Below are positions 7,381 through 12,846 of a DNA stretch of 64,000 nt, one piece after another. Each line of letters starts with the position of its first letter. Position 1 is the stretch's first letter. Source of the DNA: Eledone cirrhosa (Eukaryota). A model generated the notes under the pieces. The model ran no database searches, was not told the origin of the DNA, and saw nothing but the letters and a program-made list of their open reading frames with translations. Made by a program: the position numbers and the translations under genes. The stretch spans positions 69,998,001 to 70,062,000 of the forward strand of contig OZ024742.1 of the NCBI GenBank assembly GCA_964016885.1, read 5' to 3'.

Positions 7381-7547
7381 TGTTGATTTAAAACTTCACT
7401 ATTCACAAGTGTTTTTTAACCTTCATATCATGTATCCCTATTTTATCTGATGAAAACGCAGATATCATCTCATGATGATATTTGTTTTTGAAATGCGCAT
7501 AATAAAATACTTGGAACTCTTTTAACCATCTTTTGATCTTATATTAT
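7381..7547 (+). mobile_element. ~170-bp monomeric HHR-containing non-autonomous unit flanked by (TA)n
   Basis: Near-identical to 12653-12819 including the start TGTTGATTTAAAAC; TA repeats on both sides. Confidence 0.75.
7439..7509 (+). ncRNA. Type I hammerhead ribozyme, palindromic stem III (TGCGCA)
   Basis: tattttat-CTGATGA-aaacgcagatatcatc tcat gatgatatttgttttt-GAAA-tgcgca-TA-ataaaata. Confidence 0.85.
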
Positions 7548-8066
7548 ATATATATATATTGATAAAAAGAAATTAACACAGATAAGCGATACACTAGGAT
7601 TTATTTCGAGCATTTACATATGTACATATGTATATACCTATAATAATAGTAGATGCATTTTCAATTGAACCCTGACCTGTTGGACCCCAATTCTACCTTC
7701 ACCTCCACACCTTCATAAAGAACATATATATAAGAAATTTTGACAGAGAATTTACATATGTTCAAACTGCACACTGAATGTATGAAAAAACTTTTTTTAA
7801 TATTCAATAAGATTGATTATACCAATCGAAACCGGTTATATTTAATGCAACAATTATAAAATTATCCATTCTGTCTGATTAAAGAAAAAAATAATCTTTA
7901 AATATATTTCTGTGCTTTTTCACTTTTACTTTTTAACTGTGTATGTGTATGCATATATATAATATATATTTTTCTAGGTGTAAAACTTGCTTTGTTCGTA
8001 CTGCCTCTCTGTTGTTCCCGTTCAATTGTTCACTATATATATATATATATATATATATATATATAT

Positions 8067-8225
8067 AGGAAAAAGTATGACCCCGACGACAGAGCTCAAG
8101 CCGTTTCGACGGCTATTTCTGCCGTCGGGGTCATACTTTTTCCTATTTCCCACTCTACTACCCTAAGTATTGAGTACTCTGGTGCGTTATGGTCCATCTG
8201 GTTCCTTACCACAATTCCTTTGTTA
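8067..8225. repeat. Dispersed repeat family X with 3' half of an HHR; hairpin at 8067-8142
   Basis: Related copies at 10500-10650, 19015-19100, 26646-26692, 29445-29605, 36945-37065; the longer copies carry GAAA-cggc..gycg-TC. Confidence 0.7.
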
Positions 8226-8449
8226 TATATATATATATATATATATATATATATATATATATATATATATATATATATATATATATATATATATATATAT
8301 ATATATATATATATATATATATATATATATATAGTTTCAGAAGATCCCGTTAAGGGTGAAAGCAGCGATTCTTTGCTTAAACTTTAATCTGTTATTTTAA
8401 TAAATATATATATATATATATATATATATATATATATATATATAAACAT

Positions 8450-8779
8450 ATTATTAGAAATGTTAGCTATCGCTGTATTTTGACTAAAGAAATTAAAGAA
8501 ATTATTTAGCCTGATAGTGGGGTTAAGAACCCTCGGAGAAATGGAAAAAGATGAGTATTGACGTACATGGGATATATAAACATATATATACTTATATATA
8601 TAAACATATATATACATACATATATATATATATAAACATATATATACATATATATATATGTTGTACGTCAATACTCATCTTTTTCCATTTCTCCGAGGGT
8701 TCTTAACCCCACTATCAGGCTAAATAATTTCTTTAATCTCTTTAGTCAAAATACGGCGATAGCTAACATTTCTAATAAT
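8450..8779. repeat. Inverted repeat, ~118-bp arms around a TA-rich spacer
   Basis: 8450-8567 is the reverse complement of 8663-8779. Confidence 0.85.
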
Positions 8780-8989
8780 TTCAAACCCACTCGGTGTTTC
8801 GAAAATATTCTTACTATATATATCTCTCTCTATATATATATATAGAGAGACAGAGAGAGAGAGAGAGAGAGAGAGAGAGAGAGAGAAAGAGAGAGAGAGA
8901 GAGAGAGAGAGAGAGAGAGAGAGAGAGAGAGAGAGAGAGAGAGAGAGAGAGAGAGAGAGAGAGAGAGAGAGAGAGAGAGAGAGAGAGAT

Positions 8990-10255
8990 ATACGTGGTTT
9001 GGCCCAAAAGTAAAAGTATATTTGACCTACGTGAAATTACAAGTTATCTTACTTCAAAATGCGACGCTTGCATTGCAAGTGTCCTTAGCTCGTCTATTAC
9101 AATTTCTGAAATGATGACCATTCAACTTCGATTTCAACTTAGAGGAGAGGTGGAAATCACACGGAGCTAGATCTGGGCTGTAGGATGGATATGGAAGAGT
9201 AGGAATGATTTTTTCTTTATTTTTTGCCAGAAAGTGCTGTGTGAGCATGCAAGTTATCGTTGTGCAGTACTTAATCTCCTGTAATGTCCTTTCAGACTCG
9301 CTGGACCAGTTTTTGAAGTCGTTCCCAGATATCTTTGTACAATGTGCGATTAACTGCCTGTCATGGAGGTAAACATTCTTCCTGAGCAATACCACGACTG
9401 TCGAAAAAAAAATGATAAAAATCGTTTTCACCTAGGATCTTCTCATACGTGCTTTCTTCAGACGAGGAAAGATTTTCGTGTACCACTCCTCACATCTATT
9501 ATTAGTCTATCCAAGTGCGGTGAATTGGCAGTATCGGTAGAGGGTCGGGCGCCATGTTACGCATAGTTACGTCCCTTTACGATCTGAGTTCAAATCCCGC
9601 CGAGGTTAACTTTGCCTTTCATCCTTCCGGGATCGATAAATAAAGCACCAGTAATGAACTGGGGTCGATTTAATCGACTCCCCCCCCAAAAAAAATTACT
9701 GGCCTTGTGCCTATACTAGAAATCATTATTAGTCGATCCAAGGGCGGTGAATTGGCAGTATCAGTAGAGGGTCGGACGCTATGCTTTGCAGCATACTTAC
9801 GTCCCTTTACGACCTGAGTTCAAATCCCGCCGAGGTTAACTTTGCCTTTCATCCTTACGGGGTCGATAAAATAAAATACCGGTAATGCACTGGGGCAATT
9901 GCTGGCCTTGTGCCAAAAGTAGAAACAATTGTGTGTCTATCCAAGAAATTTCGCTCAATTTCGAGTCTTTTTAACAAATCCTAACAAATTTCCAACCGTT
10001 TCGTCTTTTGCCCCACAGACAAGTATTTGGGCATCAGTTTTCACATGAGCAAATGGTTTGTTAAAATTCTCTGAACTGTGTTATTATCCAAGCTTTAATA
10101 GGTGATCTTTCACCGTCACTTCTCGCACCACTTTCACATTTGTTTCATTTGTTGACGAGATAGACCTTCCAGAACGAAGTTCGTCTTCAGCATTTTCCCG
10201 ATGTTCTTTGAAAGTTATGTAACATTTAAACAGCCTTACACTGCGGTTCACTTGG
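8990..10255 (-). mobile_element. Decayed mariner transposase relic interrupted by two SINEs
   Basis: ORF 9054-9431 (-) contains YSPDLAPCDF (mariner motif); N-terminal remnants at 9945-10250. Confidence 0.8.
9516..9934 (+). mobile_element. Two tandem full-length SINE-A copies
   Basis: Each starts GCGGTGAATTGGCAGTATC (A-box-like) and has the B box and core; flanked by GTCTATCCAAG at 9505 and 9935. Confidence 0.9.
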
Positions 10256-11533
10256 AATAATAATATTGAGTATATGTATATATGTATATGTGTGTGTGTT
10301 TGTTAAGTGTATATAACTTTATTCATGCTATATATATATATATATATATATATATATATATATATGTGTGTGTGTGTGTATATATATATATATATATATA
10401 TATATATATATATATATATATATATATATATATATATATATATATATATATATATATATATATATATATAAAAATATATATACGTATATATATATATATA
10501 ACGAAGGAAGTGTGGTAAGGAACCAGGTGGACCATAACGCACCAGAGTACTCAATACTTAGGGTAGAGTGGGTAATAAGAAAATGTTAAAGACTCCGACG
10601 GCAGAGCTCAAGCCGTTTCCACGGCTATTTCTAGACGTCCAGAAATACATTTTCATATATATATATATATATATATATATATATATATATATATATATAT
10701 ATATATATATATATATATATATATATATATATATATATATATATATACGTATTTAAGAAAGCCACAACAGTGCAGAGGGAAATTTCGAGGTAGCAAGTGA
10801 AAGATAGATAGGAAAAACAGGTGAAAGTGAAAATTGAGAGAGACAAAGATGAAAACAAAACAAAGGTAGAAGGGTTACCGTAGTAGAGATTTAATCCCAA
10901 TATTTCGGGCTCACGCCCATCAACGGGGGAAAGTTCCAAAAGGGGGGGAACAGGCCAAGCGGAGAAAGTTGTGATGTCGTTAAGACAGGAATGCCGTTAT
11001 GGGGAGAAAATTATTTAAAATTTAAACGAGGGAAAGAATGCGCGTGCGCGTGATAGGCTGTGGCAAAAGCTACTGACCAAATGGGTTAAATCAAGAGGGT
11101 GCGCTAGCGTGTGAAAGCCGTAAGATATGTGTGTGTAAATATATATGTGTGTGTAACTGTGTGTGTATAAGTGTAAGTGTGTATATGTGTGAGTGTGTGT
11201 GTGTGTGAAAGATAGTGGGCTGTAGAAGCTGGAAATCAAAGGGTGTGAAAGGTGGTAGGTTGTAAAACATGTGTGCGTGTATAAATATAGATGTGTGTGT
11301 GTAAGCGTATGGGTATACATTTGTGTGTAACTGTGTGTGTATATGTGTGAGTGCGTTTGTGTGTGAAAGATAGTGGGCTGTAAAAGCTGGAAATCAAAGG
11401 GTGTGAAAGGTGGTAGGTTGTAAAAACATGTGTGCGTGTATAAATATAGATGTGTGTGTGTATGCGTATGGGTATGCATATACGTGCGTGTGTGTGAAGA
11501 TAGCAGGCCGTAGGCTGTGAATGGTCACTATGG

Positions 11534-11716
11534 TTAAGTTAGCCATGTCAGCTCATTTCTCTCAGCCCGGTTGTTAAGTGGGGGTCTGAGGTTCTTAATA
11601 ACAAGTGCTTCCTTTATCCTTAAGGATCCGATGCTGCGTTCAGTCGCTAGGACTGTGACCAAGGGTCTACCCTGTGGGTTTCCGCATTTAAGGATGTGTT
11701 TACGGAAGGAAGATGC
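11534..11716 (-). pseudogene. C-terminus of PLE GIY-YIG endonuclease (Penelope/Poseidon-like)
   Basis: SSFRKHILKC...LRIKEALVIKNLRPPLN matches the E-A-L-x-I...P-x-L-N end of PLE GIY-YIG domains. Confidence 0.7.
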
Positions 11717-12132
11717 GTTGTTACACACACAGTTACACACACATGTATACCCATACGCTTACACACACACATCTATATTTATACACGCACACATATTTTA
11801 CAACCTACCACCTTTCACACCCTTTGATTTCCAGCTTCTACAGCCCACTATCTTTCACACACACACACACTCACACATATACACACTTACACTTATACAC
11901 ACACAGTTACACACACATATATATTTACACACACATATCTTACGGCTTTCACACGCTAGCGCACCCTCTTGATTTAACCCATTTGGTCAGTAGCTTTTGC
12001 CACAGCCTATCACGCGCACGCGCATTCTTTCCCTCGTTTAAATTTTAAATAATTTTCTCCCCATAACGGCATTCCTGTCTTAACGACATCACAACTTTCT
12101 CCGCTTGGCCTGTTCCCCCCCTTTTGGAACTT

Positions 12133-12168
12133 TCCCCCGTTGATGGGCGTGAGCCCGAAATATTGGGA
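12133..12168 (+). ncRNA. Minimal HHR-like fold with variant core CCGUUGA (mirror copy 10895-10930, -)
   Basis: tccc-CCGTTGA-t-gggc gtga gccc-GAAA-ta-TT-ggga; palindromic AATATT stem III. Confidence 0.5.
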
Positions 12169-12532
12169 TTAAATCTCTACTACGGTAACCTTTCTACCTT
12201 TGTTTTGTTTTCATCTTTGTCTCTCTCAATTTTCAATTTCACCTGTTTTTCCTATCTATCTTTCACTTCCTACCTCGAGATTTCCCTCTGCATTGTTGTG
12301 GCTTTCTTAAATACGTATTTTACACATTTCACAATGCTTCAAGCAAACTTTAACACCCTCTTATATATATATATATATATATATATATATATATATATAT
12401 ATATATATGTAGGAGGTGAGTTTTATTGTAGTACAATAAAGCAGTGCAGATATCGGATAAGTAGCACTCTACAGTTTGTAGGACTGGAGTATAAATAATA
12501 TAAGATCAAAAGATGGTTAAAAGAGTTCCATG

Positions 12533-12603
12533 TATTTTATTATGCGCTTTTCAAAAACAAATATCATCATGAGATGACATTTGCGTTTTCGTCAGATAAA
12601 ATA
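12533..12603 (-). ncRNA. Type I hammerhead ribozyme (stem III mismatch)
   Basis: CTGACGA core; GAAA-agcgca-TA. Confidence 0.65.
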
Positions 12604-12710
12604 GCGAGACATGATATGAAGGTTAAAAAAACACTTGTGAATAGTGCAGTTATGTTGATTTAAAACTGCACTATTCACAAGTGTTTTTTAACCTTCATAT
12701 CATGTTTCCC

Positions 12711-12781
12711 TATTTTATCTGACGAAAACGCAAATGTCATCTCATGATGATATTTGTTTTTGAAATGCGCATAATAAAATA
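12711..12781 (+). ncRNA. Type I hammerhead ribozyme
   Basis: tattttat-CTGACGA-long stem II-GAAA-tgcgca-TA-ataaaata. Confidence 0.85.
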
Positions 12782-12846
12782 CATGGAACTCTTTTAACCA
12801 TCTTTTGATCTTATATTATATATATATAATTATATATATATATATA

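Follow-up and report, generated by a model that had tools for sequence, protein, structure and literature searches.

What makes two separate insertions of a short, hammerhead-bearing sequence begin and end at the same bases? This question is raised by a stretch of 64,000 nt from Eledone cirrhosa (assembly GCA_964016885.1, contig OZ024742.1, positions 69,998,001 to 70,062,000 of the forward strand), hereafter the window, in which one copy stands alone at 7381 and two others face each other in a palindrome at 12409–12818. We found that the feature common to 7381 and 12653 is real and belongs to a known insertion signature of Penelope-like elements (PLEs), and that its unit was mis-sized in the original prediction, which had proposed a defined template of ~170 bp. 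The published signature of the PLE pseudo-long terminal repeat (pLTR) consists of hammerhead repeats that face each other head to head within (TA)n, one arm carrying a tail. The two insertions are made up of the following features.

7338–7380, no strand: (TA)n target microsatellite on the 5′ flank of the single copy, from sequence inspection.
7381–7546, plus strand: single tail-less pLTR copy, 166 nt long, with (TA)n after it as far as about 7560, from BLAST and alignment.
7439–7509, plus strand: type I hammerhead of the single copy, with an 8-bp stem I, the core at 7447, a ~15-bp stem II, the stem III 8-mer ATGCGCAT and a predicted cut after 7501.
12362–12408, no strand: (TA)n next to that end of the palindromic insertion which carries the tail, from sequence inspection.
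12409–12651, minus strand: tail-bearing left arm of 243 nt, with its 5′ end 11–12 nt inside that of the other two copies.
12409–12495, minus strand: 3′ tail of 87 nt, missing from the single copy and the right arm, supported by a profile match.
12465–12490, minus strand: conserved ACYC-stem-loop-stem′-TN-GAGTR motif at the start of the tail, found at 11 distinct window loci.
12533–12603, minus strand: hammerhead of the tail-bearing arm, with a damaged stem III (AAGCGCAT, 6/8 positions self-complementary).
12652–12663, plus strand: unpaired palindrome spacer of 12 nt, which the single copy shows to be genuine 5′ sequence of the element, running the same way as the right arm.
12653–12818, plus strand: tail-less right arm, 166 nt long with the spacer counted in, next to (TA)n that reaches 12848, from BLAST and alignment.
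12711–12781, plus strand: hammerhead of the right arm, with the core CTGACGA at 12719 and the stem III ATGCGCAT.

A BLAST search of the window with the single copy returned exactly three copies, at 7381 (plus), 12653 (plus) and 12651 (minus), none of which adjoins an open reading frame (ORF). As the original prediction had stated, the single copy and the right arm of the palindrome open with the same motif: TGTTGATTTAAAAC starts at 7381, directly after the (TA)n of 7338–7380, and again at 12653. The claim of a common 3′ end is equally sound, with GATCTTATATTA closing both tail-less copies, at 7546 and 12818. The two sequences differ at 6 of 156 aligned positions. Their match runs on by TA on the 5′ side and by TAT on the 3′ side, which leaves each edge uncertain by 2–3 nt against the microsatellite. 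The third copy begins 11–12 nt later, at AACTGCAC (12651), and runs 87 nt beyond GATCTTATATTA into a homologous tail, reaching (TA)n at 12408. This contradicts the ~170-bp unit, as the 12-nt spacer and the 243-nt arm together give an element of at least 255 nt. The 166-nt piece would be better read as a tail-less product of such a template than as the template itself, since it lacks the 87-nt tail and with it the motif that would place the enzyme. Of the defined template once proposed, the fixed 5′ end, seen in two copies, stays plausible, and the length does not.

Both insertions sit between (TA)n arrays. Head-to-tail repeats of the sequence were absent within the window by repeat search and BLAST; the output of the ungapped repeat finder was dominated by microsatellites. 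A segmental duplication joining the copies at 7381 and 12653 was rejected because their flanks are unrelated. A fold-back artefact of the assembly was also judged unlikely, given 4 differences between the arms in 157 positions and the recurrence of a one-sided tail in six palindromes.

The 87-nt tail, present on one of the three copies, is homologous to the tails of other hammerhead elements in the window. A profile of five such tails, with this one excluded, matches 12501–12452 at E = 9.2e-4, and the next match outside the training set has E = 3.6. The inner stem of the motif with which the tail opens changes from locus to locus and stays paired (CAGT/ACTG, CAA/TTG, CAG/CTG, TACT/AGTA, TGC/GTA). 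The motif gave 15 matches at 11 distinct loci, whereas 60 shuffles averaged 0.6 and never exceeded 3; this control is not independent, since the motif was defined after the loci had been seen. None of the 11 loci overlaps a PLE ORF fragment. Three-frame translations of five copies contained no conserved ORF start in the pLTR or the tail; one frame of the 87-nt tail of this element is open.

The site at which the tail-less copies stop is the same throughout. In all six tail-bearing palindromes examined (12409–12818, 46535–46964, 26105–26537, 2867–3306, 23899–24061 and 8068–8223), the tail-less arm is colinear with its partner only to 5–6 nt before ACYC, where colinearity is counted to the first mismatch and (TA)n microhomology blurs the stop by at most 6 nt in two cases. 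Their tails measure 44–95 nt and occur on one arm only. The single copy 7381–7546 stops at this very site, and the palindrome at 36948–37058 carries a tail on neither arm. Within 12409–12818, the left arm has the tail and lacks the spacer, whereas the right arm has the spacer and lacks the tail. The single copy shows that the 12-nt spacer is authentic element 5′ sequence, oriented as in the right, tail-less arm. With sequence in each arm that is missing from its partner, simple fold-back copying of one arm from the other is excluded. The 8068–8223 palindrome has the same spacer polarity.

Palindromic insertions are very dense in this window. Related hammerhead elements with the same stem I and tail motif as this one lie at 2867–3306, 26105–26537, 46535–46964, 30553–30778 and 3340–3482, three of the five being head-to-head palindromes with a one-sided tail. 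A second family (8068–8223, 10501–10654, 19014–19099, 26620–26690, 29453–29577 and 36948–37058) has the tail, with the motif in four copies, and of the hammerhead seems to retain just the 3′ half (GAAA, stem III, GTC). The palindrome at 23899–24061 is centred on the 5′ end of a hammerhead-like motif and has a 44-nt tail, with (TG)n on its tail-less side. At 30064–30492 a head-to-head palindrome resembling a short interspersed element (SINE), with 95% arm identity and a 3-nt loop, lies between (TA)n arrays; by eye it has what we take to be a tRNA-like head. Inverted repeats in which no hammerhead was detected were seen at 8450–8779, 10745–12318, 17943–18062 and 38321–38596.

The PLE and hammerhead assignment of the original prediction was borne out, as every copy contains a type I hammerhead. 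Each has an 8-bp stem I, CTGA[T/C]GA and a long stem II, and the tail-less copies contain GAA-ATGCGCAT-A. The CUGANGA...GAAA...UH core is present with helices I and II, and a self-complementary helix III with loop 3 is found in two of the three copies. A descriptor scan of the whole window gave 14 hammerhead matches, where 50 block shuffles gave 0.08 on average. The self-complementary stem III that had been pointed out proved general: it occurs in 13 of the 14 matches and in none of the 50 shuffles, the sole exception being the left arm of the 12409–12818 palindrome. Its sequence varies within the window (ATGCGCAT, ATATATAT, ATATGTAT, ACGGCCGT and the 9-mer ACCACTGGT). Two scans disagreed on part of the set, the first lacking the left arm, 29700, 45803 and 42932 and the second lacking 30734 and 23958. 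The copies may be active as ribozymes.

Predicted energies favour a ribozyme dimer (−21.5 kcal/mol per molecule) over the active monomer (−11.5) and the monomer minimum (−16.1). The original prediction had noted that the palindromic stem III fits the dimeric activity of minimal hammerheads; a link between the inverted dimer and dimeric cleavage did not hold. The two hammerheads of the palindrome lie on opposite strands, so the inverted DNA dimer is not an active ribozyme dimer. A read-through RNA across the palindrome is predicted to fold into a single hairpin of about 155 bp (−258 kcal/mol), and a ribozyme dimer, if any, would have to come about in trans or from a source in tandem. Elsewhere in the window, a hammerhead-like motif at 29700–29815 (plus) has a 97-nt stem II region and the perfect palindromic stem III ACGGCCGT; the (TA)n immediately upstream of it is bordered by a 22-nt inverted repeat.

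Several published systems resemble this insertion. In Adineta vaga, Penelope pLTRs stand head to head, one of them shorter, with an optional tail on one arm (PMC3846280), and PMC8557442 generalises this signature of inverted pLTRs and tail and notes (TA)n targeting. The copies described here agree with these pLTRs of endonuclease-bearing PLEs in the head-to-head repeats, the 5′-shorter arm, the tail on one arm, the AT-rich or microsatellite target and a repeat of about 170–250 nt with a hammerhead inside. Unlike those pLTRs, they are linked to no ORF, their tail apparently lacks an ORF start conserved across families, and a target duplication is unreadable within (TA)n.

The tail itself has a counterpart in Poseidon of Anolis carolinensis (PAc). 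In vitro, the PAc tail lies between two start sites of the reverse transcriptase (RT), and both target strands are cut and extended (PMC11167929). With two start sites bounding the tail, the shared 3′ end seen here is explained, by analogy, as the known proximal PLE terminus. Both systems have two 3′ termini bounding the tail, an AT-rich target, a stem-loop near the termini and an upstream hammerhead. In PAc, however, an AC-rich stem-loop within the start of the ORF contains both start sites, whereas the proximal end here, known from sequence alone, falls 5–6 nt before an ACYC...GAGT motif common to divergent families.

Minimal type I hammerheads of metazoan PLEs occur as opposite-strand pairs 100–700 bp apart and show weak dimer-dependent cleavage (PMC4209133). 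The hammerheads of this window share with them the conserved core, the small palindromic helix III, the long helix II and the mixture of scattered single motifs and opposite-strand pairs. They differ in a helix I of 8 bp rather than 4–5, in a helix II of about 15 bp rather than 7–8, and in the closing pair 10.1–11.1 of stem II, which is A-U in all three copies and not the G-C typical of PLEs. Insertion into (TA)n and hammerheads are also features of Hydra-clade PLEs (PMC8557442), yet neither this pLTR nor the ACYC motif is linked to any Hydra-type ORF of the window, and where such an ORF does have a detected hammerhead (core at 45803), the sequence differs. Non-LTR retrozymes (PMC7229834; bioRxiv 10.64898/2026.07.22.740005) are likewise short, ORF-less, low in GC and related to pLTRs, with a type I hammerhead, but are arranged as head-to-tail tandem repeats that give circles. 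The copies here are single or head to head, and retrozyme membership was rejected in that neither head-to-tail units nor terminal redundancy was found (p = 0.74 for the latter, a weak test).

All the above lead us to a reading that we regard as somewhat better than an even bet, namely that these are ORF-less pLTR copies of an endonuclease-bearing PLE, the palindrome consisting of two joined cDNAs, one from each side of a single cut. Insertion of the copies into (TA)n would be due to a PLE protein supplied in trans. The RNA template would be at least 255 nt long and would consist of a ~66-nt leader, the type I hammerhead, ~45 nt and the 87-nt tail that opens with the bulged hairpin motif. The endonuclease would cut (TA)n, and reverse transcription would begin at one of two sites, the tail's distal end or the proximal position 5–6 nt before the motif, which may serve to place the enzyme; tail-bearing and tail-less copies would result. 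The single copy at 7381 may be one proximally started cDNA that extended as far as the template's 5′ end. In the palindrome, one distal and one proximal cDNA would have been primed from the two sides of one break, run to the template end and been joined head to head, with 11–12 nt trimmed from one. The shared 5′ edge would then mark where a short master template stops, whether at a start site or at the border of a truncated master that lies in (TA)n and passes its edge on from copy to copy. The anatomy of the copies, the homology of the tail, the position of the proximal end and the asymmetry of the arms are read directly from the window; the two start sites, the cleavage of both strands and the AT-rich targets are taken from the literature (PMC11167929, PMC3846280, PMC8557442).

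How firmly the 5′ end is fixed can be examined from the copies themselves. Two begin at the same base, within the 2-nt TA ambiguity, and the third 11–12 nt later. Under a null of geometric truncation, coincidence within 3 nt has a probability of 0.35–3.5% for mean truncation lengths of 1000–100 nt, a crude figure that leaves aside post-hoc selection and the TAT/ATA sites (14 of 170 positions) at which junctions may hide in (TA)n. In four hammerhead palindromes the longer arm begins 64–86 nt before the core, and the starts of four copies of the 8068–8223 family, all inside stem II, lie about 11 nt apart at most; both fit short templates. The edge shared by two copies is suggestive, and a fixed 5′ template end is likely.

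A number of results weigh against this account or parts of it. A preference of junctions for TAT/ATA sites raises the chance of coincidence above the crude figure, there are three copies only, of which the third differs in its 5′ end. Among relatives in the window, 5′ truncation varies: the one at 30734 (minus) starts about 40 nt before the core, that at ~3340 about 6 nt past the predicted cut site, and those at 19014 and 26620 inside the tail. None of four comparisons of the leader with the leaders of related families was significant. The palindrome at 23899–24061 has the opposite spacer polarity, which fits fold-back, and the spacers of three other palindromes were not orientable. The tail, at 87 nt (44–95 in relatives), is longer than the published 30–40 bp, a typical value. 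The motif hairpin is missing from the minimum-energy fold of this copy, and only two of five tail regions fold better than z = −2. Rfam gave no match at gathering score in the whole window, and its 90 weak matches in 6500–14000 included no hammerhead, being mostly microRNA models on hairpins and microsatellites. Finally, tblastn of the window with 120 relatives found no PLE ORF fragment before position 22510 and no parent ORF.

The same PLE origin would hold if a single template had primed on itself and folded back, after which the endonuclease would trim the tail from either arm or recombination would flip the spacer; the single copy would be a cDNA whose synthesis broke off at the loop when a palindromic master transcript was being copied, so that the loop, and not the end of a template, sets the 5′ edge. 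Self-priming has been proposed for these palindromes (PMC3846280), and PMC8557442 attributes the tail to endonuclease resolution. The five alleles that both arms share against the single copy, the start of that copy at the loop edge and the polarity of 23899–24061 point in the same direction. This course of events appears rather unlikely to us, however, as the extra trimming or flipping is needed at two of the three orientable loci and the tail has been mapped to RT start sites (PMC11167929). The copies might instead be ordinary 5′-truncated 3′ ends of a full-length PLE, their common 5′ edge a coincidence aided by TA microhomology with the target. Strong 5′ truncation is typical of PLEs (PMC8557442), window relatives begin at many different points, and the case for a fixed edge has n = 2, chosen post hoc, with 14 TAT/ATA sites available. 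Set against this are the crude chance given above, the start of the third copy within 12 nt of the other two and the finding that 0/11 motif-bearing loci overlap a PLE ORF fragment, which make coincidence improbable in our judgement.

The single copy equals exactly the spacer plus the tail-less arm, as it would if it were the remnant of a second palindrome that had lost its tail-bearing arm by a deletion running from (TA)n to the spacer's TA, and long palindromes are unstable. Upstream of 7381, however, there is no trace of arm or tail, and two palindromes with the same centre would still be required; we hold such a deletion to be very improbable. Both ends common to two insertions could also point to a self-contained ~170-nt template, or to a retrozyme-like circle with this sequence as its unit, a size that we take to be near the low end of the retrozyme unit range. 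The literal ~170-nt unit is largely refuted by the tail, which continues on the third copy. The window moreover holds no head-to-tail repeats, the ends do not fall at the ribozyme cut, and leader and tail show no redundancy (p = 0.74 here; 0/5 comparisons significant, a weak test), so that we give this explanation next to no credence.

Where the protein of the preferred two-cDNA reading might come from is suggested by broken ORFs farther along the window.

43838–45504, 51171–53711, 22510–23061, 38694–39358 and 54924–55346: broken RT and GIY-YIG ORFs, from tblastn.

Among the 120 matches listed, the relatives of these ORFs are mostly proteins of ~700 aa, and those named come from the marine invertebrates Solemya, Amphiura and Holothuria at 48–52% identity. 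The fragments contain RWR and DKT motifs, where the Hydra clade is described with RWK and DKT, and all four endonuclease pieces translated contain the CxCX5C linker, which PMC8557442 gives for the Hydra clade. Pfam, run on eight ORF pieces, returned GIY-YIG at E = 2.7e-4 and RVT_1 at E = 0.044, both below the curated cut-offs, and one irrelevant domain of unknown function; five of the eight had no match. These Hydra-like ORFs are candidate suppliers of the PLE protein by sequence, and none is linked to this pLTR.

At 43067–45945, with 42052–42936 and 47344–47523, a broken Hydra-like PLE ORF is accompanied by an inverted 3′ copy. The hammerhead of its 3′ region is split from the ORF by a microsatellite, and two copies of that hammerhead have G at the cut position and are predicted to be inactive. 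At 50133–55931, with 47535–48616 and 58003–58950, lies a near full-length broken Hydra-like PLE (51171–53711, minus) with kilobase inverted copies of both its ends, in which neither scan detected a hammerhead.

The window holds further repeats. A homogeneous 67-bp tandem satellite occupies 14662–17630 (44 copies, 95% matches). An abundant dispersed SINE-like repeat, of 65–95% identity and often in tandem pairs, lies at 2160–2309, 5367–5770, 6545–6970, 9496–9930, 23001–23429, 24707–24901 and 31896–32649. Fragments at 9054–9431 (minus), 13376–13633 (plus), 60269–61481 (minus) and 63478–63930 (plus) resemble a mariner-type transposase and ORFs of the long interspersed element type.

In the available parts of the PLE literature we found neither the ACYC...GAGT motif nor a two-template model, in a search that was not aimed at the motif and that did not extend to Repbase, Dfam, subscription journals or supplements. 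No paper devoted to these families was found there either, and the supplement of PMC8557442, with its consensus sequences and hammerhead lists, could include them. How inverted pLTRs and tails are formed and what the hammerhead does are open questions in PMC3846280, PMC8557442 and PMC11167929. The window adds a candidate cis-motif at a fixed distance of 5–6 nt from the tail-less terminus across divergent families, and its single copy lets the palindrome spacer be oriented.

A wider and doubtful proposal would join these observations. Several SINE-like non-autonomous satellite families of PLEs, with hammerhead RNAs of ~250 nt and a fixed 5′ end, would use the ACYC...GAGT hairpin as a docking site, RT starting 5–6 nt upstream, and head-to-head insertions would arise from two RNAs, possibly paired by stem III, that prime from both sides of one (TA)n cut. 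If this were true, the PLE ribozyme would pair templates, and the inverted pLTR structure would be accounted for. Together, the motif and the spacer orientation would allow fold-back and two-template origins to be distinguished genome-wide, and would provide an RNA element for the in vitro PLE assay.

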